Source: Thermoanaerobaculia bacterium (GTDB taxonomy: Bacteria; Acidobacteriota; Thermoanaerobaculia; Multivoradales; UBA5704). Taken from it: DNA of 64,000 nucleotides. The position numbers and the translations under genes were made by a program. Each line of letters opens with the position of its first letter. Position 1 is the stretch's first letter. Below the pieces are notes generated by a model, which saw only the letters and a program-made list of their open reading frames with translations, ran no database searches and was not told the DNA's origin. The stretch is from positions 5,852 through 69,851 of the forward strand of contig DASZZM010000092.1 of NCBI GenBank assembly GCA_035544895.1, read 5' to 3'. This document shows positions 9,234 through 62,870 of the stretch, piece by piece.

Positions 9234-9240
9234 GTCAGTA

Positions 9241-9345
9241 GTGCGTGAGAGGGCGGGGGCGTCCCCTTCCCCCCCGGAGGGGAGGGAAGGGGATCGAGGG
9301 GTTGCGGGGGGCGATCCAATAGATGCTTCGAGTAGTCCACCAGCG
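9241..9345 (-). repeat. REP/MITE-like hairpin repeat, copy A (inverted orientation)
   Basis: Reverse complement reads catctattggatcgccccccgcaacccctcgatccccttccctcccctccgggggggaaggggacgccccc, matching copies at 34971, 41984, 46841 and 54228. Lies between the convergent nfo and rseP ends. Confidence 0.7.
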
Positions 9346-9377
9346 CCACGTCGCAGCGCTGATTCGCCCTATGGGAT

Positions 9378-10691
9378 CTACGACCCCGGCGGGCCAGGCA
9401 GGTGCTTCGCGAGATCAAAATAAATCACCACCGCCATCAGCATCAGGATGAGCACGAAACCCACCTGGCTGATCACCTCCTTGACGCGCACGGAGAGGTC
9501 GCGGCGGATCACCTCCTCGATCAGCAGGATGAAGATCTGCCCGCCGTCGAGAATGGGAATCGGCATCAGGTTGAGCAGAGCGATGCTTATGCTAAAGAAG
9601 CCCATCAACTGCAAAAGGAACTTGAACCCGATGCGCGCCGCCTCCCCGCTCGCCTGGGCCATCCCGATCGGGCCGGCCAGGGCTCCCTTGGCCGACATCT
9701 CGCGGCGGAAGATCTTGCCCAGGATCCGGAAAGTGTCGCTGACGATCTGCAGGCTGTACCTTACGCTCTCGACCAGGGCCTTACCGGGCGGATAGCGCTG
9801 GAAGAAGCCCACTCCGACTCCGATCTTGCCCACCTTGCCCTCGGTCCGGGGGACTACGGCAAGGGAGAGGATCCTGCCGTTGCGCGCCACCTGGATGGTC
9901 ATCCGCTGGCCGGGCCGCTTCTCGATCGCCGCGATGAAGTCCCGGCGGTCGGCGATCGGACGCCCCTCGACAGACCGGATCTCGTCACCTGGGCGGAAGC
10001 CCGCCGCGGCGGCGGGGCTCCCTTTCTCGACCTGCATGATCTGCGGCCGGAAAGAGGGGATCAGGCCGGCGTAGTCCCCCATGCCGTACTTGGGCACCAT
10101 CTGGGGGACAACCCTGGCGGTGAACCGATGCCCGTCCCGCCGGGCTTCCAGCGCGACCGGGCGGTTTGGTGAAGTCATCAGCACGAACTCGACGTCTTGC
10201 CAGCTCGACACGTTCTCGCCATTGGCTCGCACGACGAGGTCGCCGCGCTGCAAGCCGGCCGCGGCGGCTGACGAGCCGGGTTCTACCCCGCCGACGAGCG
10301 GCGGCATGCCCGGGAGGTTCGGCAGCTCGATGCCGACCATGAAAAGGCCGGCGAACAGAGCGACCGCCAGCACCACGTTCATCGTCGGGCCGGCCAGGTA
10401 GACGAGCACCCGCTGCCAGCGCGGCTTGCTCAGGAACTCGCGTGGATCGCCGGTCGATTCCTCGGGGTTCTCGCCGCCCAGCCGCACGTAGCCGCCCAGG
10501 GGAACGAGCGAGATCCGGTATTCCGTCTCGCCGCGCGTGAAACCCACGAGACGCCTGCCGAAGCCGATCGAGAAGGTCATCACGCGGACCCCGAAGGCCT
10601 TGGCGACCATGAGGTGCCCGGCTTCGTGGACGATGACGATGACGCCGAGGGCGAAACCGAAGGCAAGGATGGTGATGAGGGTGTCGTTCAT
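9378..10691 (-). CDS. rseP: RIP zinc metalloprotease RseP (site-2 protease)
   Basis: HEAGHLMVAKAFGV HExxH in the first TM, PDZ region, LDGG motif (NLMPIPILDGGQI). Start taken at MNDTLITILAFG. Confidence 0.85.
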   Translation of the reverse strand: MNDTLITILAFGFALGVIVIVHEAGHLMVAKAFGVRVMTFSIGFGRRLVGFTRGETEYRISLVPLGGYVRLGGENPEESTGDPREFLSKPRWQRVLVYLAGPTMNVVLAVALFAGLFMVGIELPNLPGMPPLVGGVEPGSSAAAAGLQRGDLVVRANGENVSSWQDVEFVLMTSPNRPVALEARRDGHRFTARVVPQMVPKYGMGDYAGLIPSFRPQIMQVEKGSPAAAAGFRPGDEIRSVEGRPIADRRDFIAAIEKRPGQRMTIQVARNGRILSLAVVPRTEGKVGKIGVGVGFFQRYPPGKALVESVRYSLQIVSDTFRILGKIFRREMSAKGALAGPIGMAQASGEAARIGFKFLLQLMGFFSISIALLNLMPIPILDGGQIFILLIEEVIRRDLSVRVKEVISQVGFVLILMLMAVVIYFDLAKHLPGPPGS

Positions 10692-10802
10692 GATCGGTGG
10701 AGATCCGCGGCCTTCCGTTGCGAACGGCGGCATGCCTCCGCGCCGCGGCCGTCAGTCGAAAGGTCGATTATAGCGGAGCGCACCGGAGCGCCTGACAGGC
10801 GG

Positions 10803-32352: not shown

Positions 32353-34626
32353 ATGAGATCGCAATTGCGCGCCAATCGAAACATCCGAACCACACTCGCC
32401 CTGATGCTGATCCCTGGCATCGCGCTCCTGCTGTACTTCCAGGGGGTGTACGCCGTTTCGAGCGCCGCGCGGCGGGTCGGTTTCCTGCCAGCCGAGTCCC
32501 CGGGAGGGCTGCGCGTCGGCGCGCTCCAGCCGGGGTTGCCGGCAGAACGCGCGGGCCTGCGCCGCAACGACCTGATCGTGGCCGTCGACGGCAGGGCAAT
32601 CGAAGGCGACCTCTCCTACCAGCGGGTGGCGCGCCAGTACCAACCGGGCAAGCCGGTCCACATGCGCATCCTCCGGCAGGGACGGCCCCTGGACATCACG
32701 GTCCGCCCCGGAGTCCCTTTCCCGTACTTGACCTTCTCGCTCAACCTTTTGGCCGCGCTGGGGTTCCTCGCCGTCGGTCTGCTCGCCCTCGGCCAGGGCT
32801 TGCGCGACCTGCGCACCCGGCTCCTCTTCGGATTCACCGCGGCCGTGGCCGTCGAGCTGGTCTTGCCAATCAACGTCATCGGCAGCGCCTGGCTGCGCGC
32901 CGCCGCGCTGTGCGCCTGGTACCTGCTGACCGGACTGCAGATCGGCCTCGAGCTGCACATGGCTTCGCTGATCCCCGAGCGGCACGCCTGGCTGCGCGGC
33001 CGCCGCTGGGTGGTCCCGCTCTACTACCTGGTCGGGCTCGGCCTGGGCGGCGCAAGCTGCGCCTCCTATGTCGCCGACGAGATCCTGGGCGCCCGCGTCT
33101 TGCCCTGGACCTCGGATCAGATCGATTCGCTGCTCTCGAACTTCGGGCTGCCGCTCTGGGGCGCCGTGGTCTCGCTCCTGCTGGCGAGCCAGGCGCTGCG
33201 CTATCCCGAGCCCCGGGGGCGGCACCAGGCCGGCCTGGTCCTCTCCGCGGTGATTCCCTGGTTTCTCCTGGCAACCACCCAGTCGGCGCTCAACCTGCTC
33301 GGGCTGCCGAGCCCGAACTGGCTCAACGCGGCCCAGTCGCTGATCCTGCTCCTCTATCCGCTGGCGCTGTTTGCGGCCGTCTACCTTTACAACCTGTTCG
33401 ACATCGAGCTGGTGGTCCGCCGTAGCCTGCTTTTCTCCACGCTTTCCGGCGCCCTCGTCGTGGTCTTCTATGCCGCCCTGGGCGGCGCGGGCCTGCTTTT
33501 CCCGCGCCTGGCACGCGGCACCCACTCGGTATCGGCGGTCGCCGTCGCCATGCTGCTGCTCGGGCTGCTCTTCGCTCCGCTGCGGCGCATTGCCCACCGG
33601 CTGATCGACCGCCAGTTCTTTCCCGAGCGCCACGAGATGCGCCAGCGCCTCATCGGCCTCGCCGGCGAGTTGCCGGCGCTCGGCAAGCTGCCGCGCATGG
33701 GGCAATACCTGGTGTCGCGGCTGGCCGAGATCTTCCACTCGCGTTCGGTGGTTCTCCTCATCGCCAGCCCCGAGACCGGCCTGCTCGACCTCCTGGCGAC
33801 CACCGGCGACGAGTGGCACGAGGCGGCGCGCAAATCCCTCCTGGCGCCGCTCGACGATCCCGGTATCGAAGCGCTGATGAGGAGCCCGCGGCCTCTCTCG
33901 GCGGCACAGCTGGCGCGCCGCAGCCCGACCCTCGCCCACCGCCTGGCCGGGCTCGCTCCAAGCGGCCTGGCCGTGCCGCTGCTCAGAAACGATCGTTTGA
34001 TCGGCGCCCTGGTGGTGGGCGACAAGGCCGGCGGCCAGGGCTATCCTTCCGAAGAGCAGGATCTGCTGACGCTGCTCGCCCACCACGTGGCCTCGGTGTT
34101 CGAGAACGCGCGTCTGTTCGAGTCGGCGACCTACGAGAGCCTGACCGGCCTGCTGCGCCGCGAGGCCATCCTCGAGCAGCTGGAGCGCGAACTGGAGCGC
34201 GCGCTGCGCTACGGCCGGCCGCTCACCCTGGCGATGGCCGACCTCGACTATTTCAAGGGCGTCAACGACCGCTACGGTCACCTCGCCGGCGACACGCTGC
34301 TCAAGGCCATCGCTCAGGCAGTCGCGGCCGGAGTGCGCAGCACCGACCTGATCGGGCGCTACGGCGGCGAGGAGTTCCTGCTGGTGCTGCCGGAAACCGA
34401 TATCGCCGGGGGGGCAAGCGTGGCCGAGAAGATCCGCACCCTGGTCCAGAAGACCGCCGTGCCGATGGACGACGGCTCTCTCTTGCGGGTCACCATCTCG
34501 ATCGGTCTGGCCGCGGTCAGCGATCACGAGAAACTCACGGCCCGCCACCTCATCGCGGCAGCCGACCGTTCCCTCTACGAGGCCAAGAACAGCGGCCGCA
34601 ACCGCGTCTACCCCCTGGTCGCTTAA
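32353..34626 (+). CDS. membrane sensor diguanylate cyclase (PDZ plus multi-TM plus GAF-like plus GGDEF)
   Basis: Real part of listed ORF 31150..34626 from MRSQLRANRNIRTTLALMLIP; PDZ (GLRRNDLIVAVDGRAI), about 8 TM helices, C-terminal GGDEF (RYGGEEFLLVLPETD...SIGLA..., DxLTGL). The opposite-strand ORF 32230..34638 is antisense. Confidence 0.8.
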   Translation: MRSQLRANRNIRTTLALMLIPGIALLLYFQGVYAVSSAARRVGFLPAESPGGLRVGALQPGLPAERAGLRRNDLIVAVDGRAIEGDLSYQRVARQYQPGKPVHMRILRQGRPLDITVRPGVPFPYLTFSLNLLAALGFLAVGLLALGQGLRDLRTRLLFGFTAAVAVELVLPINVIGSAWLRAAALCAWYLLTGLQIGLELHMASLIPERHAWLRGRRWVVPLYYLVGLGLGGASCASYVADEILGARVLPWTSDQIDSLLSNFGLPLWGAVVSLLLASQALRYPEPRGRHQAGLVLSAVIPWFLLATTQSALNLLGLPSPNWLNAAQSLILLLYPLALFAAVYLYNLFDIELVVRRSLLFSTLSGALVVVFYAALGGAGLLFPRLARGTHSVSAVAVAMLLLGLLFAPLRRIAHRLIDRQFFPERHEMRQRLIGLAGELPALGKLPRMGQYLVSRLAEIFHSRSVVLLIASPETGLLDLLATTGDEWHEAARKSLLAPLDDPGIEALMRSPRPLSAAQLARRSPTLAHRLAGLAPSGLAVPLLRNDRLIGALVVGDKAGGQGYPSEEQDLLTLLAHHVASVFENARLFESATYESLTGLLRREAILEQLERELERALRYGRPLTLAMADLDYFKGVNDRYGHLAGDTLLKAIAQAVAAGVRSTDLIGRYGGEEFLLVLPETDIAGGASVAEKIRTLVQKTAVPMDDGSLLRVTISIGLAAVSDHEKLTARHLIAAADRSLYEAKNSGRNRVYPLVA

Positions 34627-34946
34627 TGGATCCGGCAAAGCTTCTCACCGAGGTGCGGCGCCTGCCGGACGAACGGCACCTGCAGCTGACCTGGAGCGAC
34701 GGGCACAGCGCGGAGTACGCCTACGACTTCCTGCGCGGCTGGTGCCCGTGCGCCGCCTGCCAGGGGCACTCCGGCCTCGAGATCCTCTATCATCCGCCGC
34801 CGTCGCCGGTCACCGCGCGATCCATTCAACCCGTCGGCAACTACGCGATCTCCATCGGCTGGTCGGATGGGCATGGTACAGGCATCTACCGCTTCGAGTT
34901 CCTGCGCGAGATCTGTCCCTGCGGCCAGTGCTCAACTACTTCTTAA
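34626..34946 (+). CDS. DUF971 zinc-binding small protein
   Basis: MDPAKLLTEVRRL...WSDGHSAEYAYDFLRGWCPCAAC...GWSDGHGTGIYRFEFLREICPCGQC has two CxC/CxxC pairs typical of DUF971; ATG overlaps the GGDEF stop (TAATG). Confidence 0.7.
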   Translation: MDPAKLLTEVRRLPDERHLQLTWSDGHSAEYAYDFLRGWCPCAACQGHSGLEILYHPPPSPVTARSIQPVGNYAISIGWSDGHGTGIYRFEFLREICPCGQCSTTS

Positions 34947-34970
34947 TTGGCGCCGCCCAGTGGCCCCGAA

Positions 34971-35095
34971 GCATGAAACAGCGCTCGCTAGCTGGCGATG
35001 GCGGCCTCAGATCTATCGGATCGCCCCCCGCAACCCCTCGATCCCCTTCCCTCCCCTCCGGGGGGGAAGGGGACGCCCCCACCCCTGACGCACGA
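34971..35095 (+). repeat. REP/MITE-like hairpin repeat, copy B (full length)
   Basis: catgaaacagcgctcgctagctggcgatggcggcctcagatctatcggatcgccccccgcaacccctcgatccccttccctcccctccgggggggaaggggacgcccccacccctgacgcacg; stem CCCCTTCC/GGAAGGGG. Confidence 0.75.
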
Positions 35096-35104
35096 ACGAG
35101 ATTA

Positions 35105-35689
35105 CTGATCGGAGTCGCGCTCGCCGGCGGGGACTCGCGGCGCATGGGAAGCGACAAGATGGCTCTCGATCTGGGCGGAGAGACGCTGCCCGCCCTGGCC
35201 GCCGGGCGGCTGGCGGCGGTCTGCTCCGAAGTGGCGATCGCCGACCGCGGCCGGCGCCTGGTGCCCGGCTACCGTTCCCTGGAGGACGCTGCCGTCGAGG
35301 GACCAGCCGCCGGTATCCTGGGGGCGGCGCGAGCTTATCCAGGGAGCCTCCTGCTCGTCCTCGCCTGCGACCTGCCGCGCATCCCCCTCGCTCTCCTCGC
35401 AGAGCTGGCCGCCTCCTCGGACTGCGACTGGGCCGTGCCCCGCTGGCGCCGCGGCCTCGAGCCCCTCTGCGCCCTCTACGGCCCCGCCGCCCTGGACGCC
35501 CTCGCCCGCCTCGCCGCGCGCGGCCTGCCCGCTCCCCATCGCCTCGGCGACGCCGGCGGCCTCGCCATCCGCTACGTCGACGAGCCCGAGCTTGCCCGCC
35601 ACGGAGCGCTCGAGGACCTCTTCCTCAATGTCAACACCCCCGCCGATCTCGCCCGCTGGCGCCGGCTCGACCCTGCGGACGCCAGGTAG
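35105..35689 (+). CDS. mobA: molybdenum cofactor guanylyltransferase MobA (start codon unresolved)
   Basis: LLIGVALAGGDSRRMGSDKMAL...LLVLACDLP matches the MobA N-terminal GxxLAGGxSxRMGxDK motif. No ATG/GTG/TTG between the repeat and the motif; the only in-frame ATG lies inside the repeat (34973). Confidence 0.7.
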   Translation: MIGVALAGGDSRRMGSDKMALDLGGETLPALAAGRLAAVCSEVAIADRGRRLVPGYRSLEDAAVEGPAAGILGAARAYPGSLLLVLACDLPRIPLALLAELAASSDCDWAVPRWRRGLEPLCALYGPAALDALARLAARGLPAPHRLGDAGGLAIRYVDEPELARHGALEDLFLNVNTPADLARWRRLDPADAR

Positions 35690-35770
35690 TGCTACGATGC
35701 CGACCCGATTTGCCGGCGCTCTGCGAGAGGACGGCGCCGGATCCGTCACGAGATCACAAGGAGAATACGC

Positions 35771-36352
35771 ATGGACCTCAGCCTGACCTTTCTCGTCTGC
35801 CTCCTCGCTTTCGCCGGTGCCGCCCCGGGGGCCGCCCCCGCCAAGCCCGCCAAGACCAATCCCAAGGTCACGCTCGACACCTCGAAGGGCAAGATCGTCA
35901 TCGAGCTCTATCCCGACAAGGCGCCCAAGTCCGTCGAGAACTTCCTCGCCTACGTCCGCTCCGGCACGTACAATGGCACCATCTTCCATCGCGTCATCCC
36001 CGGCTTCATGGTCCAGGGCGGCGGCTATGACGCCAACGGCGAGCAGAGGCCCACGCGCGCCCCCATCCAGAACGAATCGGACAACGGCCTCGCCAACGAG
36101 CGCGGCACCGTCGCCATGGCGCGGACCAACGATCCGAACAGCGCCACGGACCAGTTCTTCATCAACGTCAAGGACAACGCCTTCCTGAACCGGGGGGCGC
36201 AGGGCGCGGGCTACGCGGTGTTCGGCAAGGTGATCGAGGGCATGGACGTGGCCGACAAGATCGTCGCCGTTCCGCGTGGGCACGGCAGCATCGGCGACGA
36301 TCAGCCCAACGAGCCGGTGGTCCTCAACAAGGCGGTGGTGTCGAGCAAGTAG
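35771..36352 (+). CDS. ppiA: peptidyl-prolyl cis-trans isomerase, cyclophilin type, periplasmic
   Basis: Signal peptide, then GTIFHRVIPGFMVQGGG...GTVAMARTNDPNSATDQFFIN...GYAVFGKVIEGMDV cyclophilin signature. Confidence 0.85.
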   Translation: MDLSLTFLVCLLAFAGAAPGAAPAKPAKTNPKVTLDTSKGKIVIELYPDKAPKSVENFLAYVRSGTYNGTIFHRVIPGFMVQGGGYDANGEQRPTRAPIQNESDNGLANERGTVAMARTNDPNSATDQFFINVKDNAFLNRGAQGAGYAVFGKVIEGMDVADKIVAVPRGHGSIGDDQPNEPVVLNKAVVSSK

Positions 36353-36384
36353 GGTCGCTGGTCTTCCCGAAGCCTGCAAGAGTC

Positions 36385-36503
36385 CGGGGGCCGCAGGAGG
36401 TCTCCCGCAGGTTCCCCTTTCGCGGCGGCTCGCATCACAAGACAGGTTCGGGTACACACCGCAGAGCCGCCAGCGAAAGGGGAACCTGCGGGAGACCTCC
36501 TGC
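36385..36503. terminator. long near-perfect hairpin (about 40-bp arms, about 33-nt loop) between ppiA and tRNA-Leu; bidirectional terminator or structured RNA
   Basis: ccgcaggaggtctcccgcaggttcccctttcgcggcggctc ... gagccgccagcgaaaggggaacctgcgggagacctcctgcgg; the arms are reverse complements with one indel. Confidence 0.6.
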
Positions 36504-36581
36504 GGCCCACCACCGTTCACGCTCAGCGCGCGACCCACCGGCCTCAGACACCGCCAGTGAAGCTAGAATTTCTAGGAGGGA

Positions 36582-36666
<85 letters not shown>

Positions 36667-40852: not shown

Positions 40853-40897
40853 CGCGGGGGGGAAGGGGACGCCCCCACCCCTGGCGCACGCACCTTC
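40853..40897 (+). repeat. REP/MITE-like repeat, partial copy C (3' half only)
   Basis: gcgcgggggggaaggggacgcccccacccctggcgcacgcacc matches the 3' arm of copies B/D; directly abuts the conserved TsaD N-terminus. Confidence 0.6.
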
Positions 40898-41947
40898 GTT
40901 CTTGGCATAGAGACGTCGTGTGACGATACCGCCTGCTCCGTCCTCGATGGCGAGGGGCGGGTGCTCTCTTCGGTCGTCTCGAGCCAGCTCGCCGCCCATC
41001 GTCCCTACGGCGGTGTCGTTCCCGAAATCGCCTCGCGCGAGCATCTGGCCAACTGGCTGCCGGTGAGCGGGGAGGCGTTGGCGCTCGCCGGCGTCACACC
41101 CGCGCAGTTGGAGGTGGTGGCGGCGACGCGCGGCCCCGGGCTGGTCGGCGCGCTGCTGGTCGGCCTGGCCCTGGGCAAAGCCTTCGCCTTCGCGCTCGGC
41201 CGTCCCTTTCACGCCATTCACCATCTGGAGGGCCACCTCTACTCGCCTTTCCTCAGCGCGCCGGATCAGATCGCCGTGCCGGCCGAGCCGCCGCCGGCGC
41301 GCTTTGCCGGGCTGGTGCTCTCGGGCGGACATACCAGCCTGTTCGCGGTTTCGGAAGGGCGGATCGAGACGCTCGGCGAGACACGCGACGACGCCATTGG
41401 AGAAGTCTTCGACAAGCTGGGCAAGCGGCTCGGCCTGCCCTACCCGCAAGGGCCGCGGCTCGATGAGCTGGCCGAGCGCGGCGACCAGCAATCGCGCCGC
41501 TTGCCGGTCCCCGCCTGCGGCGGCACCCTCGACTTCTCCTTCTCCGGGTTGAAGAGCCACGCCCTGGTCGAGGTCGAAAAGTTGGAGCGCCGCCTCGGCC
41601 CGCTCTGGCTGGGCGGCCCGCGGCCGGACGCGCCGCAGGAGCTTCTCGACCTGCTCGCCGCCTTTCGCGCCGCCGCGATCGCCCAGGTGTTCGACCGCCT
41701 CGACCGCCTGCTGGATCGCCAGCCGGTCGAGCTCCTGGCAGTGTCGGGCGGCGCCGCCGCCAACCGTCTCCTGCGCCGCGAGCTCCCTTCCTGGGCCGCA
41801 CGCCGCGGCCTCGCCCTCCGCCTCGTGCCCCTCGCCTACGCCGGCGACAACGCCGCCATGATCGCCCACGCCGCCCTCCTCCGCCATCACCGTGGCCTGG
41901 CGGACGATCCCTTCACCGCGGAAGCCGAGAGCCGGATTCGGATCTAG
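40895..41947 (+). CDS. tsaD: tRNA N6-adenosine threonylcarbamoyltransferase TsaD (start codon unresolved)
   Basis: FVLGIETSCDDTACSVLDGEG...HHLEGHLYSP...GLVLSGGHTSL...LSGGAAANRLLR is the Kae1/TsaD family. No canonical start between the repeat and VLGIETSCDD; the listed ORF starts at 40766, reading through the repeat and overlapping the upstream gene. Confidence 0.8.
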   Translation, partial: FVLGIETSCDDTACSVLDGEGRVLSSVVSSQLAAHRPYGGVVPEIASREHLANWLPVSGEALALAGVTPAQLEVVAATRGPGLVGALLVGLALGKAFAFALGRPFHAIHHLEGHLYSPFLSAPDQIAVPAEPPPARFAGLVLSGGHTSLFAVSEGRIETLGETRDDAIGEVFDKLGKRLGLPYPQGPRLDELAERGDQQSRRLPVPACGGTLDFSFSGLKSHALVEVEKLERRLGPLWLGGPRPDAPQELLDLLAAFRAAAIAQVFDRLDRLLDRQPVELLAVSGGAAANRLLRRELPSWAARRGLALRLVPLAYAGDNAAMIAHAALLRHHRGLADDPFTAEAESRIRI

Positions 41948-41983
41948 CTAGTCTTAGCTGCCACCGCCTGCTGCGACTCCGAG

Positions 41984-42107
41984 GCATGAACAGCGCTCGC
42001 TAACTGGCGATGGCGGCCTCCGATCTATCGGATCGCCCCCCGCAACCCCTCGATCCCCTTCCCTCCCCTCCGGGGGGGAAGGGGACGCCCCCGCCCCTGA
42101 CGTACGG
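41984..42107 (+). repeat. REP/MITE-like hairpin repeat, copy D (full length)
   Basis: catgaacagcgctcgctaactggcgatggcggcctccgatctatcggatcgccccccgcaacccctcgatccccttccctcccctccgggggggaaggggacgcccccgcccctgacgtacgg; upstream of lrp. Confidence 0.75.
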
Positions 42108-42189
42108 AGAGTTTCGTCTTAACCTGGGGCCCGGCCTGCCAGATTTCTCCTGGGCTGGGTTATGATCGGGAGGGGGAGGGAGAGAGCGC

Positions 42190-46834: not shown

Positions 46835-47206
46835 TCACGGAGCATCTATCGGATCGCCCCCCGCAACCCCTCGAGAGGCCGCGGGCCGCCGGCAGAACGC
46901 CGGATCGAGCTCGCCGCTCGGCCTCGCCGCCGATTCGTCCGGGCCGATGGCGACGATCGCGACCATGCCGGCGCCGGCCGAGCGGCGCCGGCGCAGCAGG
47001 TCGAAGCAGGCGTTGCGGGTGACTCGTAGCAGCCATCCTGTCAGCATCTCGGGGTCGAGGCTTTCGCCGTGGCGCCACAAGCGCAGCAGCACCTCCTGGG
47101 TCACGTCCTCGGCCTCCTCGCGGCTGGCGAGGAGGTAGCGGGCAAAGGTGTAGACCCTGCGCTGGTGCCGCCTGACCGCCGCCTCGAAGTCCATCGGCAC
47201 CTCCAT
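46835..47206 (-). pseudogene. ECF sigma-70 factor, region 2 only (truncated; region 4 missing)
   Basis: MEVPMDFEAAVRRHQRRVYTFARYLLASREEAEDVTQEVLLRLWRH...LTGWLLRVTRNACFDLLRRRR is a canonical sigma-2 domain. The ORF then runs about 45 aa with no sigma-4 HTH and terminates in the repeat translation (…RGVAGGDPIDAP). Confidence 0.55.
46841..46875 (+). repeat. REP/MITE-like repeat, partial copy E (5' half)
   Basis: agcatctatcggatcgccccccgcaacccctcgag matches the 5' arm of the family; embedded in the 3' end of the sigma-factor ORF. Confidence 0.6.
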
Positions 47207-51583: not shown

Positions 51584-52896
51584 CCGAGGCCGCCGCGGCC
51601 ATCCAGGTCGAGCAGGCGAGCAAGCTCTACCGCCGCTCCCTGCCGGGCGACCGGCTGCGCACGTTGAAGAGTGCTCTGCTCGGCGGCGGCCTGGTCCGCG
51701 ACCTGGCGCGCGAGAACGCCATCGTGGCGCTCGAACAGGTGAGCTTCACGGTCGGGCGCGGAGAGGCCTTCGGGATCATCGGCGGCAACGGCTCGGGCAA
51801 GTCGACCCTGCTCAAGCTGGTGGCCGGCATGCTGAAGCCGACCTCCGGGCGCATCCAGGTCGCCGGCCGGGTGGCGGCGTTGATCGAGCTGGGAGCCGGA
51901 TTCCACCCGGAGATCTCGGGGCGGGAGAACGTCTACATCAACGGCGCCGTGCTCGGGCTGTCGCGCCGCCAGGTCGCCGAGCGCTACGACGCGATCGTCG
52001 AGTTCTCCGGCCTTGGCCGTTTCATGGAGGAGCCGGTCAAGAACTATTCCTCCGGCATGTACGTGCGCCTGGGTTTCGCGGTGGCGATCCATACCAGCCC
52101 CGACGTGCTGCTGGTCGACGAGGTTCTGGCGGTCGGCGACGAGGCGTTCGCCCACCGTTGCGTGCGGCGGATCGAGGAGTTCCTGGCGAGCGGCAAGACG
52201 CTGCTGCTGGTCAGCCACTCCCTCGATCTGGTCGCCGAGCTCACTGACCGGGCGCTCTGGCTCGACAACGGACAGCAGCGCCTGCTGGGGTCTCCGCGGC
52301 GGGTGGTCGACGCCTATCGCCAGGCGGTCGCCGAAGCCGAAGGCGAGGCGCATCTCACCGCCAAGCAGCACCGTGATCCCGCTCCTGGCGGCCCCGAAGC
52401 TGCCGCCGGCACCGCGGACGAGCCCTTGCGCTGGGGATCGGGCGAGGCCGAGATCGCGGCGATCCGCCTGGTCGGGGGCGACGGCGCCGAGCGCTACCAC
52501 CTGCGCAGCGGCGAGCCGGCGATTTTCGAGATGCGGGCCCGGGCCGCGCGGCCGCTGTCCGATTTCGTGTTCGGCATCGCGATCGCGACGCCGCGCGGCT
52601 TCGAATGCTGGGGCACCAATACCGACCTCGAGGGCTTCGTTCCCGCGAGCTTCGAGGGAGAGGCAACCGTGCGCTTGACCTGCCCGGCGCTCCGCCTCGC
52701 TCCCGGCGAGTACGCGGTCGACGTCGCCGTGCACAGCCGGTCAGGCGCGCCCTATGACTACCGCCGCCGCGCCCTCACCTTCACGGTGACGGCCGCGACT
52801 GGCGGGGTCGGCGTCTACTTCCCCGAGCACCGATGGGACTTCGCCGGCGGCGTGCGCTGGCAAGACCCCGCAGCGGCCGCCGGGCAGGAGGGTTAG
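51580..52896 (+). CDS. ABC transporter ATP-binding protein (Wzt/TagH-like) with C-terminal carbohydrate-binding extension
   Basis: GIIGGNGSGKSTLLKL (Walker A), YSSGMYVRLGFAVA (signature), LLVDEVLAVGD (Walker B); about 180-aa C-terminal extension. ATG overlaps the permease stop (ATGA). Confidence 0.85.
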   Translation: MTEAAAAIQVEQASKLYRRSLPGDRLRTLKSALLGGGLVRDLARENAIVALEQVSFTVGRGEAFGIIGGNGSGKSTLLKLVAGMLKPTSGRIQVAGRVAALIELGAGFHPEISGRENVYINGAVLGLSRRQVAERYDAIVEFSGLGRFMEEPVKNYSSGMYVRLGFAVAIHTSPDVLLVDEVLAVGDEAFAHRCVRRIEEFLASGKTLLLVSHSLDLVAELTDRALWLDNGQQRLLGSPRRVVDAYRQAVAEAEGEAHLTAKQHRDPAPGGPEAAAGTADEPLRWGSGEAEIAAIRLVGGDGAERYHLRSGEPAIFEMRARAARPLSDFVFGIAIATPRGFECWGTNTDLEGFVPASFEGEATVRLTCPALRLAPGEYAVDVAVHSRSGAPYDYRRRALTFTVTAATGGVGVYFPEHRWDFAGGVRWQDPAAAAGQEG

Positions 52897-52928
52897 CTTT
52901 AGTGTCCCTAGCTCTCCCAGAGCCGGCC

Positions 52929-54203
52929 ATGCGGGATCTCGTGGACCTTGCCCGGCGGATGGCCGCCACGGCGCTCGCCGCCGTCGATCCGGAGCGGCTT
53001 GTCCGCGAGCCGCTGGCGCGGCGCGGCGAGCGCTTTCCGGCGGTCCTGGCGGTGGGCAAGGCGGCCCCGGCGATGGCGCGCGGCGCCCTCCCCTTCCTCG
53101 AGCCCGCGGCGCGGCGCTTGCTGATCCGGCCGCACACCAGCCCCGGCCTGCTCGACCCCGCCTGGGAGCAGCTCTCCGGCGGCCATCCGCTGCCCGACCG
53201 TCAGAGCCTTGCGGCCGGGGCGCGCCTCCTCGGCTGGCTGGCCGAGCTGCCGCCGCCGCGGCCGCTTCTGGCGCTGATCTCCGGCGGCGCGTCGGCCTGC
53301 CTGGAAGCGCCCGCCGCCGGCCTCACTCTCCACGACCTGGCGGCGACCCAGGAAGCGCTCCTGGGCTCCGGGCTGGCAATCGATCGCGTCAACGCCGTGC
53401 GCAAGCACCTCTCGGCGCTCAAGGGGGGCGGCGCCCTGCGCGCCACGCGTACCCGAGTCGTCGCGCTCCTGCTCTCCGACGTGCCCGGCGACGATCCGGC
53501 CACGATTGCCTCCGGACCCTTCGCCGCGGATCCCACCACCTTCGCCGAGGCGCTGGCTTCAGTCAGCACGATCGGCGGCCTCCCCGGGGTGCCCGAGGCC
53601 GTGCGCCGGCACCTGGCCCGCGGCGCTCGCGGCGAGCTGCCGGAGACGCTCGAGCCGGGAGATCCGGCGCTCGAGCGTGTCGAGAGCCTGCTGATCGGCA
53701 GCGTTGCCACGGCCATGGCCGCCGCGGTGGCCGAGGCGCGGCGGCGCGGCATGACGGTCGGGGAAGGGGAGCTCACCGGCGAGGCGGCGGAGGCAGCGTG
53801 CCTGATGGTGGCCAAGGGACGGGCCATGCCGGGTCCTCGGGTGGCGCTGGTCTTGGGCGGCGAGACCACCGTGACGCTCGCCGGTGCCGCGGGCAGCGGC
53901 GGCCGCAATCAGGAGCTGGCCCTGGCCGCGGCACGAGAGCTGGCGGGCAGCGGCGACGAGGTCGCCGTGGCGCTTGCCTCGGACGGCGTGGACGGTCCGA
54001 CCCGCTTTGCCGGCGGCCTGGTTCACGGCGGGACCTGGGAGGCCATCCGGCGGGCCGGGCTCGATCCGGCTAGTTCCCTCGCCCGGCACGACGCGCAGCG
54101 GGCACTTGCCGCCGTCCCCGGGGCCCTCCTCGAGACCGGCCCCACCGGGACCAACGTCAGCGATTTAGCCATTTATTTGAGGATGGCCCCCAGCACAGGC
54201 TAG
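52929..54203 (+). CDS. glycerate kinase / hydroxypyruvate reductase family (MOFRL)
   Basis: …AVGKAAPAMARGA…LISGGASACLE…KHLSALKGGG…LLSDVPGDDP…GGETTV…GGRNQELALAAA… is the MOFRL/GckA family. Start at MRDLVDLARR; the listed ORF is extended upstream into the ABC gene. Confidence 0.75.
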   Translation: MRDLVDLARRMAATALAAVDPERLVREPLARRGERFPAVLAVGKAAPAMARGALPFLEPAARRLLIRPHTSPGLLDPAWEQLSGGHPLPDRQSLAAGARLLGWLAELPPPRPLLALISGGASACLEAPAAGLTLHDLAATQEALLGSGLAIDRVNAVRKHLSALKGGGALRATRTRVVALLLSDVPGDDPATIASGPFAADPTTFAEALASVSTIGGLPGVPEAVRRHLARGARGELPETLEPGDPALERVESLLIGSVATAMAAAVAEARRRGMTVGEGELTGEAAEAACLMVAKGRAMPGPRVALVLGGETTVTLAGAAGSGGRNQELALAAARELAGSGDEVAVALASDGVDGPTRFAGGLVHGGTWEAIRRAGLDPASSLARHDAQRALAAVPGALLETGPTGTNVSDLAIYLRMAPSTG

Positions 54204-54227
54204 CGCTGCGATGTGGCGGTAGATGAC

Positions 54228-54352
54228 TACTCAATGCATCTATCGGATCGCCCCCCGCAACCCCCGCAGATCCCCTTCCCGGTTTTCCAGAGCCGCCGGG
54301 TCCCTGCCCGGCGGTAGCCGGAGGGGAAGGGGACGCCCTCTCCCCTGGCGCG
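54228..54352 (+). repeat. REP/MITE-like repeat, copy F (variant with internal insertion)
   Basis: atgcatctatcggatcgccccccgcaaccc..gatccccttccc…ggaggggaaggggacgccctctcccctggcgcgc shares both arms with the other copies. Confidence 0.65.
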
Positions 54353-54470
54353 CTAATCGTTTCGCTCTTGTTTTAGGCCCGGCTGGTTGGCTGGGGCTGG
54401 ACTAGCCCGCCCTCGCCACAGATGCGGTAGCATCGGAGGGCCAGCCCGCCCACAGGACAAGGAGGCAGTG

Positions 54471-54752: not shown

Positions 54753-55404
54753 CCGCCCGGCGGCCGCTCTGGCCCTGCTTTTCTGCCCGCTGGCCGGCTG
54801 GCTCGCCGGCGCGCTGGCCGCGGGCTGCCGCTCGACGGACGAGCGCCCCCAGCCCGCGATGGCCGATGCCTTGACCGATGGGCCGATGCGCTGGCTGCTG
54901 CTGCCCGAGGAGCGCCGGCAAGCGCGGCGGTTGCACAACTCCGCCGAGGCCGTCGAGTTCATCGGGAATTTCTGGCGGCGCCGCAACCCTGACCCGCGGT
55001 CGCCGCAGAACGACTTCGCGCGCGTGTTCTACGAGCGGGTCGAAAGCGCGGACCGCCTGTACGGCGAAGACGGCAGCCGCGGCAGCCTGACCGACCGCGG
55101 GAGGGCGTTGATCGTGCTCGGTCCGCCGCCGGAGCTGCGCTATGGCCAGAGGCGCCTCCCTTCCTGGGAGCCCGGCCAGCCGAGCTCCCGGCCTGCCATC
55201 CACACCCGCAACGTCGGAGTCGAGACGTGGAAGTACGAGTGGTCCGATCTGCCGCCGAAACTGGTCGCCCTGCTCGCCGCCGAGGCGCCGGGCCAGGAGG
55301 TGGTCCTGGTCTTCCTCGTCGACACCCACCACACCCGTCTCATCGAAGGCGGCCATCTCCTCGACCTTGCCGCCCGCGCCGCCGTCCACGACCCGATCCG
55401 CTAG
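54700..55404 (+). CDS. GWxTD-domain lipoprotein
   Basis: Lipobox LAGALAAGC; FWRRRNPDPRSPQNDFARVFYERVESADRLYG…SLTDRGRALIVLGPPPELRYG…ETWKYEW fits the GWxTD family. Confidence 0.65.
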   Translation: MARSTRPPSRPATAAFTSRPAAALALLFCPLAGWLAGALAAGCRSTDERPQPAMADALTDGPMRWLLLPEERRQARRLHNSAEAVEFIGNFWRRRNPDPRSPQNDFARVFYERVESADRLYGEDGSRGSLTDRGRALIVLGPPPELRYGQRRLPSWEPGQPSSRPAIHTRNVGVETWKYEWSDLPPKLVALLAAEAPGQEVVLVFLVDTHHTRLIEGGHLLDLAARAAVHDPIR

Positions 55405-55554
55405 TGTCCCGTCTGTGAAGGGCAGATGGAGACGCTGATGATAACTCAATATCATAGAGTAAGTTGCGAGATTCAAGGTGAAGACGCAGTAGACCCTGGG
55501 GAAGCGCCGGGGAAGCACGCGGAAGGCAATGAAAGCGCAGTGTGGAGCATGCGA
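55405..55554 (+). repeat. left arm of about 150-bp inverted repeat pair (IR-L)
   Basis: tgtcccgtctgtgaagggcagatggagacgctgatgataactcaatatcatagagtaagttgcgagattcaaggtgaagacgcagtagaccctggggaagcgccggggaagcacgcgg…gtggagcatgcgagcgtagctgag is about 95% identical to the reverse complement of 62660..62810; contains an IS66-like GTAAG terminus motif. Confidence 0.8.
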
Positions 55555-55570
55555 GCGTAGCTGAGCCCGA

Positions 55571-55888
55571 TTGGCCGCCATCGCCGGGCAAGTGACACGC
55601 TATGTCGAGGACGGCATCCTCGACATCGACAACAACCGCGCCGAACGAGCACTGCGGCGCGTGGCGGTGGGTCGCAAGAACTGGATGTTCGCCGGCAGCG
55701 ATGAGGGTGGGCGCCGAGCGGCGATCATCTACAGCCTCGTCGCCAGCTGCGCTCTGCTGAAGGTGAATCCGTTTGCCTACCTTCGCAACGTCCTGGAGCG
55801 CTTCCCCTCCTGCTGCCCTGCCGACCTCAGCCAGCTCACGCCGAAGGTCTGGCAAGAGAGCCACACCAACCCTGCCACGACCGTCTGA
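55571..55888 (+). mobile_element. IS66-family transposase (TnpC) C-terminal remnant, about 105 aa, 5' about 80% deleted
   Basis: VEDGILDIDNNRAERALRRVAVGRKNWMFAGSDEGGRRAAIIYSLVASCALLKVNPFAYLRNVLERF…LTPKVW matches the conserved C-terminus of IS66 TnpC (IDNNxAERALRxxAxGRKNWLFAGS…YSLxxTCKLNGVNPxxYL). Confidence 0.75.
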
Positions 55889-62571: not shown

Positions 62572-62659
62572 GGAGAGGGAGCATTTTGAGGCCGTGGTGA
62601 TGGCGCCGCGGGCGGTTGCCCTGTCCGCAGCTGTCTCTCGAAAGGAGCCCCGCATCGAC

Positions 62660-62810
62660 CTCAGCTACGCTCGCATGCTCCACACAGCGCCTTCATTGTC
62701 TCCCGCGTGCTTCCCCGGCGCTTCCCCAGGGTCTAGTGCGTCTTCACCTTGAATCTCGCAACTTACTCTATGATATGGAGTTATGATCAAGGTCTCCTTC
62801 AGCCCTTCAC
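62660..62810 (-). repeat. right arm of about 150-bp inverted repeat pair (IR-R)
   Basis: Reverse complement of 62660..62810 aligns with 55405..55554, including tgtcccgtctgtgaagggc…ataactc(a/c)atatcatagagtaagttgcgagattcaaggtgaagacgca…ggaagcacgcgg…gtggagcatgcgagcgtagctgag. Confidence 0.8.
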
Positions 62811-62870
62811 AGACGGGACACCAGTACCTCGCTCTACCCCTCGCCCACGTCGCCAGCGAGGCTCGAGTGT

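Follow-up and report, generated by a model that had tools for sequence, protein, structure and literature searches.

The window, by which we mean the whole 64-kb stretch of Thermoanaerobaculia DNA analyzed here, carries a short DUF971 gene followed on the same strand by mobA, with a copy of a multi-copy repeat element at the junction of the two (Table 1). The 238-amino acid product of the mobA reading frame is 100% identical to GenBank HVT18920.1, annotated as 'molybdenum cofactor guanylyltransferase' in a Thermoanaerobaculia MAG. NCBI's deposited mobA annotation already uses the repeat-borne start. The exact 238-residue product was present on none of the indexed contigs.

Table 1. Features of the DUF971-mobA junction and further copies of the repeat element in the 64-kb window
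Feature	Position	Strand	Basis or context
Upstream gene, DUF971/GBBH-like_N, 106 aa	34626..34946	+	Translation; PF06155 recorded for orthologues
173-nt segment replacing 31 nt (GCCCGCCTAGATCCCTGCCCTCGATGACACC) of the empty allele	34934..35106	+	Alignments against L001 and L018
Element copy at mobA (c35k)	34947..35106	+	5' module 34947-35010 (with ATG), core 35011-35084, 3' module 35085-35106; family alignments
mobA ORF	34973..35689	+	NCBI annotation HVT18920.1, 238 aa; residues 1-44 element-encoded, 45-238 MobA fold
Element-borne ATG, family motif SATGAAAC	34973..34975	+	26 nt past the DUF971 TAA; unpaired in predicted local folds
36-codon ORF, +1 frame, within the element	34998..35108	+	TGA stop overlaps CTG 35105 and ATC 35108; no sign of function
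Core hairpin CCCCTTCCCTCCCC-TCCG-GGGGGGAAGGGG	35043..35072	+	Stem of ~14 bp; within the putative N-terminal coding extension
CTG 35105 and ATC 35108	35105..35110	+	Only near-cognate in-frame candidates beside the MobA core; products M-I-G-V or M-G-V
Closest paralogue (c42k)	41958..42122	+	Between tsaD and an Lrp/AsnC regulator gene
Copy c9k	~9234..9377	-	Directly past the TAG of an rseP-like gene (9378-10733, minus strand); without the ATG motif
Copy c54k, long-loop variant	54169..54376	+	Gives the last 12 codons and TAG to a glycerate-kinase-like gene (52833-54203)
Partial copy, 5' core fragment	46838..46874	+
Partial copy, 3'-half fragment	40855..40893	+

Domain and signature place the gene in the MobA family, with guanylyltransferase activity (MGD formation) predicted. 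Pfam NTP_transf_3 (PF12804) matched residues 47-184 (E=6.9e-24; 85.3 bits against a cut-off of 27), the domain beginning at G47, position 35111. Residue 45 pairs with residue 7 of E. coli MobA (1E5K) at the start of the alignment. The nucleotide-binding signature G-x-x-L-A-G-G-x-S-x-R-M-G-x-D-K is present (GVALAGGDSRRMGSDK against 1E5K residues 7-23, E=4.6e-13), and its columns are invariant or nearly so among 40 homologues. The protein shares with the E. coli MobA structures (1E5K, 1FRW) the NTP_transf_3 domain, the LAGGxSRRMGxDK loop and a confidently modelled alpha/beta fold. It differs in its leader, which comprises 45 non-homologous residues compared to six in E. coli and three in the native allele described below. 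An AlphaFold model of the 238-residue product gave a mean pLDDT of 87, with a confident core (~95) in which strand beta-1 begins at residue 45, the CTG codon. Residues 1-44 were modelled without secondary structure and at low pLDDT (50-63 over residues 1-40); this poorly modelled, Pro/Ser/Gly-rich tail is probably disordered. Among 110 homologues, annotated N-terminal leaders are between 1 and 64 residues long (median 15), which indicates that leaders are tolerated and makes a floppy one plausible. At 46 residues, the window leader lies in the upper tail of the length distribution; just 4 of the 110 homologues reach 30 residues or more.

Immediately 5' of the conserved core, the mobA frame reads ...GAC GCA CGA ACG AGA TTA CTG(35105) ATC(35108) GGA GTC GCG CTC GCC GGC GGG. 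Reading of the codons from 34976 to 35110 revealed no ATG, GTG or TTG in this frame, in agreement with the initial annotation, which had claimed that no such start separates the repeat from the MobA core. That annotation had also described an in-frame ATG within a fully open repeat. This reading holds: the frame is open from the ATG at 34973-34975 as far as the mobA stop at 35689, and this repeat-borne codon is the sole canonical start remaining for mobA. The other two frames of the copy are closed by TGA codons (35086-35088 and 35106-35108). Both predicted folds (MFE and centroid) leave the ATG unpaired. No Shine-Dalgarno sequence was found at normal spacing before it; such sequences are used elsewhere in the genome, as with AAGGAG, which precedes the PPIase gene at 35771. 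Scanning 34500-35900 for promoter and terminator consensus sequences gave nothing relevant. A 45-residue extension had been proposed, which is correct as the number of residues preceding I46, whereas the gain over the native protein (MTPIGV...) is 42 residues. Tryptic peptides diagnostic of the element-encoded extension would be SLAGDGGLR, SIGSPPATPR and SPSLPSGGEGDAPTPDAR.

The repeat itself, as initially proposed, is genuine. Its 30-nt hairpin core occurs exactly three times in the window against zero expected, and four full and two partial copies are present. The mobA copy is 97% identical over 118 nt to positions 41989-42106 in its closest paralogue, and its 3' module is without the terminal CTTAG typical of the family. 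Among GTDB genomes, a 27-nt core was confined to two Acidobacteriota MAGs, the Thermoanaerobaculia MAG SMAG_U6239 (at least 13 loci) and one other, and metagenome contigs yielded 11 further copies. Comparison of 33 copies defined a multi-copy element of ~170-210 nt whose left flank ends in YTAG or TTAA. Its 5' module is variable, with SATGAAAC in approximately 16 of the 33 copies. The core is strongly conserved (...CTCGAAGCATCTATCGGATCGCCCCCCGCAACCCCTCGATCCCCTTCCC-loop-GGGAAGGGGACGCCCCC), its hairpin tip being either short or expanded by a nested insert of 30-70 nt, and the 3' module terminates in ...GTTTCGTCTTAG. Most copies have YTAG or TTAA at both the left flank and the right end, conserved between loci; this may be a target motif, a duplicated CTAG target or a part of the element. 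Tandem copies have one CTAG or TTAG in common. The junction motif includes TAG or TAA, and several copies, among them those next to DUF971 and to the rseP-like gene at 9378, start exactly at a stop codon. On contig L018 a copy starts at the 3' end of a tRNA. Within 64 kb the element rearranges gene ends at several sites.

Terminal inverted repeats were not found: in the full copy at 41935-42140, the central 14-nt hairpin is the sole inverted repeat of 8 nt or longer. Rfam returned only tRNA for the whole window at the gathering threshold, and no match for 34900-35160 at a permissive E<=1. A riboswitch or known small RNA was rejected on these negative results at both thresholds. Filled and empty alleles were recovered at two loci. 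The family is thus short, non-coding, present in many copies and found both filled and empty, as are classical MITEs, but has none of their terminal inverted repeats. In our reading, the family is a MITE-like, non-autonomous mobile element that has no terminal inverted repeats. A literature search on Thermoanaerobaculia repeats returned nothing relevant among titles and abstracts and, with no Rfam match either, the family appears to be undescribed.

Comparison with relatives that lack the repeat at this junction, which the initial annotation had suggested, identified the native layout. On contig L001 (Logan, run SRR12277193), which shares 98% nucleotide identity with the window in both flanks, the empty site reads ...TGC TCG CCC GCC TAG ATCCCTGCCCTCG ATG ACA CCG ATC GGA GTC. 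This contig encodes a 99%-identical MobA of 196 aa (P0001) that starts MTPIGVALAGG. Contig L018, ~95.6% identical to the window, has the same empty layout (TAG, 13 nt, ATG ACA CCG [A/G]TC GGA). The native mobA ATG therefore lies 13 nt past the DUF971 TAG and is without a Shine-Dalgarno sequence, a layout typical of translational coupling from DUF971 to mobA. The 31 nt missing from the window comprise the last DUF971 codons and stop, the 13-nt spacer and ATG ACA CC of mobA. A search of the whole window for the native 23-nt junction, allowing up to three mismatches, found no match. Derivation of the window ATT ACT from ATG ACA CC by point changes was rejected, the similarity being at chance level and the ATT at 35101 out of frame. 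Two positions ahead of G-V-x-L-A-G-G, 71 of 110 homologues have Pro, as does L001, and the window has Leu, which indicates that the window state is derived. The native start was very probably lost through an element-associated rearrangement, much as first supposed.

The limits of the repeat had been drawn too narrowly, with its 5' end at the ATG. The element body begins directly past the upstream TAA, and the segment that differs from the empty allele extends further still, into the DUF971 gene, whose last codons and TAA are also supplied by the element. The window DUF971 gene ends ...CAGTGCTCAACTACTTCTTAA and is followed at once by the repeat. Past ...CPCGQCS, the DUF971 tail differs by allele: TTS* in the window, PA* in L001, PV* in L018 and PGT* in L016.

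A third allele was found on contigs L016 and L017, from two JGI samples. Their flanks are ~98% identical to those of the window, and their element copy, at the same junction, points the opposite way. Positions 2763-2785 of L016, on the DUF971 side, match the reverse complement of the native spacer plus ATGACACCG at all but one position (0 such matches expected by chance). The two breakpoints carry an inverted duplication of ACCG/CGGT. The element body has been inverted, and the native spacer and start codon were flipped along with it. The IMG mobA call for this allele uses the internal Met of RRMGSDK and gives a protein of 181 aa; such a start would delete the nucleotide-binding (LAGG) loop. 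Taken together, the alleles indicate that the mobA start has been lost twice within one population or species, by different routes. The second start-less allele may mean that mobA is dispensable in the species and the window gene newly dead.

The L016 allele also allows its element ends to be compared with those of the window. Its unflipped left end, TACTTAG|TTGCGCCGCC, resembles the window left end, TACTTCTTAA|TTGGCGCCGCC. Flipping its right end back yields an inferred forward element with an intact start, ...CTTCTTTCTGG ATCCCTGCCTTCG ATG ACA CCG ATC GG, relative to which the window has lost ~23 nt between two GATC sites (...TCT[GGATCCCTGCCTTCGATGACACC]GATCGG). A metagenome scan with a 31-mer of the mobA 5' region did not recover this predicted intermediate, in which a forward element precedes an intact native start; the scan gave 0 matches and hence no further alleles. 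In the mobA core, L001 and L016 differ by nine synonymous and no non-synonymous codon changes, and the window and L001 by five synonymous and two non-synonymous changes, both conservative. These differences fit purifying selection but cannot date the rearrangements. An intact mobA ORF says little if the event is recent.

We propose that the element inserted at or beside a CTAG overlapping the DUF971 stop codon, as suggested by the YTAG/TTAA left junctions of the family and the ...GTTTCGTCTTAG end of the element. Some 23-26 nt between two GATC sites, covering the last bases of the element, the spacer and mobA nucleotides 1-8, would then have been deleted. Simple insertion does not account for the left junction, which has AACTACTTCTTAA instead of GCCCGCCTAG. 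This unclean junction, and element bodies only ~80% alike between the window and L016 (by eye, not computed) where the flanks are 98% identical, argue against a simple history shared by the two alleles. Ribosomes terminating on DUF971 would most likely re-initiate at ATG 34973, 26 nt past the new TAA. MobA made in this way would have an intact catalytic fold preceded by a tail 42 residues longer. We give an even chance to ATG 34973 being the start actually used.

The initial annotation had raised the possibility that the repeat is being co-opted as a 5' coding extension. The family comparison does not bear this out, as the mobA copy is the only one of 33 in which the element ATG is fused to a downstream gene. 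The fusion itself was observed in the window allele alone, two Logan fragments of a single run being the only other matches to its junctions. Of nine other copies tested, six keep the ATG frame open over 44 codons or more; with a one-in-three chance of the correct frame, an open in-frame fusion would be expected in about one fifth of events. The fusion is therefore not strongly beyond chance. ATG-frame ORFs run to 5, 12, 40, 46, 61, 62, 67 or 111 codons in different copies, and indels of 1 nt, 8 nt and 30-70 nt among the copies leave no conserved reading frame. The closest paralogue, c42k, reads ATG-AACAG, with a 1-nt deletion relative to the mobA copy that reduces its ATG frame to just five codons. 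A protein database search with the 43-residue repeat peptide gave no match in other protein representatives, and a recurrent coding module was rejected on this result. A mini-ORF running from the element ATG to the terminal TAG, preserving translational coupling, was likewise rejected, since lengths and frames vary among copies. With one fusion in 33 copies, no conserved frame and the peptide in no other protein representative, the fusion appears to be an accident of the mobA locus and not a function of the family. It is best read as a recent, strain-specific and tolerated accident rather than an evolved function of the repeat. The account as a whole, namely element-linked loss of the native start, initiation at the element ATG and an accidental fusion, is in our judgement slightly favoured.

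Another reading, which we consider possible if rather unlikely, is that mobA is effectively dead in the window strain: the coupled start is gone, no useful MobA is made, and the ORF is intact because the event is recent. The independent loss of the native start in L016 and L017 suggests that such loss is tolerated, and the IMG gene caller found no acceptable upstream start there and fell back on the internal Met. The missing Shine-Dalgarno sequence ahead of ATG 34973 points the same way, as does the fact that both non-synonymous changes are specific to the window lineage. Against this, the gene is conserved across Thermoanaerobaculia (504 homologues at E<=1e-10), the L001-L016 differences are exclusively synonymous, and the two conservative replacements between the window and L001 are fewer than neutrality predicts. 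An accessible in-frame ATG also lies 26 nt past the upstream stop.

Translation could instead begin at the near-cognate CTG 35105 or ATC 35108, giving a near-native MobA at low level and reducing the repeat to a 5' leader; we consider this improbable. It would be consistent with a modelled beta-1 strand that begins at the CTG codon, with the single residue that precedes G-V-x-L-A-G-G in 4 of 110 homologues, and with a weak ACGAGA motif 6 nt before the ATC. The TGA of the 36-codon upstream ORF overlaps both codons, and could deliver terminating ribosomes to them. However, CTG and ATC serve as starts in E. coli at no more than about 1% of the rate of ATG, the Shine-Dalgarno-like motif is a poor one, and the site lies 158 nt past the upstream stop and 3' of the 14-bp G+C hairpin.

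The coexistence of three structural alleles at ~98% identity (empty; forward with the start deleted; inversion with a flipped start and the 4-nt ACCG/CGGT inverted duplication) also suggests a further reading. The DUF971-mobA junction might be a recurrent target of the element, and rearrangement a population-level on/off or dosage switch for MobA, hence for all bis-MGD molybdoenzymes. Were this quite improbable reading true, the conserved ATG and terminal stop codons of the element would allow partial rescue of expression.

It is very unlikely that the family is operon-compatible by design, its own stop (in the 5' YTAG) and its own ATG keeping neighbouring genes translatable, with the mobA extension an evolved and recurrent use. 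The ATG motif is kept in about half of the copies, elements sit directly at the stop codons of the DUF971 and rseP-like genes and at a tRNA 3' end, and the glycerate-kinase-like gene takes its stop codon from the element. These observations are outweighed by the single fused copy, the wide spread of ATG ORF lengths (5-111 codons) with indels and no conserved frame, the absence of the repeat peptide from other protein representatives, and the different frame of the ATG in the closest paralogue.

An assembly or base-call artefact concealing an ordinary start, as initially allowed for, is highly implausible: the window derives from a short-read MAG and contigs of other assemblies break within the repeat, but two Logan contigs from run SRR12277192 (a different assembler, though the same reads may underlie both assemblies), each with one end inside the element, reproduce the left (L040) and right (L041) junctions of the window with 100% identity, and both flanks are syntenic with L001, L016 and L018. 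Exact junctions and syntenic flanks together make such an error unlikely. An artefact or a designed module, taken jointly, has only a slight probability.

The preferred reading, an accidental fusion to a mobile repeat, has precedents. Repeats fused in frame to gene 5' ends, and repeats carrying a ribosome-binding site and ATG, have been described (Delihas 2011, PMC3184786). In-frame fusions to gene ends are known for pneumococcal BOX, RUP and SPRITE (Croucher 2011) and for Bordetella BRE (Hot 2011), reviewed in PMC3184786. Like these, the window element is a small, non-autonomous, hairpin-forming multi-copy repeat at a gene boundary whose open frame joins an annotated ORF, at the 5' end of mobA and also at 3' ends (the c54k gene and DUF971). 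It differs in phylum (Acidobacteriota, Thermoanaerobaculia) and in its unrelated sequence. Furthermore, the empty-site allele shows that the native start was physically removed, so the repeat ATG is not a mere upstream alternative. REP2-like repeats resemble it in having a consensus ATG that can act as the start of the downstream gene. They are marked by recurrent use of that ATG and a ribosome-binding site or promoter in the repeat, whereas the window family has no detected promoter or Shine-Dalgarno consensus and only 1 of its 33 copies is so used, which indicates that the family as a whole does not supply starts.

Rickettsia palindromic elements (RPE; Ogata 2000) have reportedly inserted internally and recurrently in many genes. 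They and the window element have in common a repeat-encoded peptide tolerated in functional proteins outside the catalytic fold, translation of the fusion being a prediction here; unlike RPE, the window shows a single N-terminal fusion following loss of a start codon. The MITE Chunjie of Geobacter uraniireducens (Chen 2008) is said to insert into an operon without disturbing it, and to have 21-bp terminal inverted repeats and 9-bp direct repeats. Both elements lie between co-transcribed genes, whose frames are closed and opened by element sequence, but the window element has no terminal inverted repeats and its junctions are of the YTAG type. Closer in anatomy are the IS200/IS605-derived PATE and REP/BIME elements, which likewise combine a strong internal hairpin with a lack of terminal inverted repeats and with a fixed short motif (here YTAG) at left flank and right end. 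In addition, tandem copies share one junction, and the orientation of the element is often that of the upstream gene. The window element is much longer than REP, and its junction anatomy is suggestive of a possible kinship with PATE. The locus is thus a repeat-to-gene fusion of known type, in an apparently undescribed Thermoanaerobaculia repeat family. The unusual point, as judged from the alleles compared, is that the same start codon was knocked out twice in one population.

For annotation, HVT18920.1 holds 45 repeat-derived residues and the IMG 181-aa call is without the nucleotide-binding loop, so that neither represents the N-terminus of the family. The locus offers a clean natural case, with the empty-site allele known, in which a mobile repeat removes a coupled start and offers its own ATG. 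If the fusion is translated, a housekeeping enzyme readily tolerates a repeat-encoded leader; if it is not, mobA is being lost in part of a Thermoanaerobaculia population.

The repeat family also rewrites the 3' ends of genes, since the 5' module of the copy at 54169-54376 supplies the terminus of a glycerate-kinase-like gene. The MOFRL domain of this gene stops at residue 444 of 456, and the repeat module encodes the final 12 codons and the TAG stop. The DUF971 tail (TTS*) is another gene 3' end rewritten by the family. An ECF-type sigma factor gene has Sigma70 region 2 only, without region 4, and a partial repeat copy, read as its reverse complement, codes for roughly the last 12 residues of the protein. 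This gene looks to have been truncated by an element-associated rearrangement.

Features associated with the repeat family and its insertion sites (window coordinates unless a contig is named)
Feature	Position	Strand	Relation
Glycerate-kinase-like gene (DUF4147 + MOFRL)	52833-54203		3' end overlaps element copy 54169-54376 (region 54165-54203)
ECF-type sigma factor gene, 128 aa	46835-47221	minus	overlaps partial repeat copy 46838-46874
36-codon ORF (MAASDLSDRPPQPLDPLPSPPGGKGTPPPLTHERDY*)	34998-35108		+1 frame of element
Non-family hairpin element	36353-36584		between PPIase stop and tRNA (36585-36666, minus strand)
Inverted element allele	L016 2750-2965; L017 about 340-552

At the mobA junction, two contigs (L016 and L017) carry the element inverted. 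The native spacer and mobA start codon were inverted along with the element body, and the breakpoints show a 4-nt ACCG/CGGT inverted duplication. Both contigs share an in-frame TTG 17 codons 5' of I-G-V; IMG annotates mobA in this allele from an internal Met (181 aa). Within the window copy at this junction, the putative 36-codon ORF ends in a TGA that shares bases with the CTG and ATC codons next to the MobA core.

The PPIase-tRNA gap is the second site with polymorphic insertions; it lies 1.3 kb from the mobA junction. In the window it holds a hairpin element of a different kind, whose arms (36388-36423 and 36473-36508) form a perfect inverted repeat of 36 nt. The same site is occupied by a reverse-oriented GGATCGCCCCCCGCAACCCC-family element in L018 and L001, and just a ~20-nt remnant is left in L016. 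Separately, a 171-nt inverted repeat (92% complementary; 55401-55571 and 62654-62824) flanks ~7 kb of the window.

The empty mobA allele of L001 (SRR12277193) and the filled window allele of L040/L041 (SRR12277192) come from runs with adjacent accessions, probably from one study, so related samples seem to harbour both alleles. Tandem element copies (L036, minus strand, ~181; L034, ~208) have one common CTAG or TTAG at their junction (...GTTTCGTTCTAG|TTGGCGCCGCC...). This single shared motif suggests that new insertions favour the 3' end of the element itself as a target.
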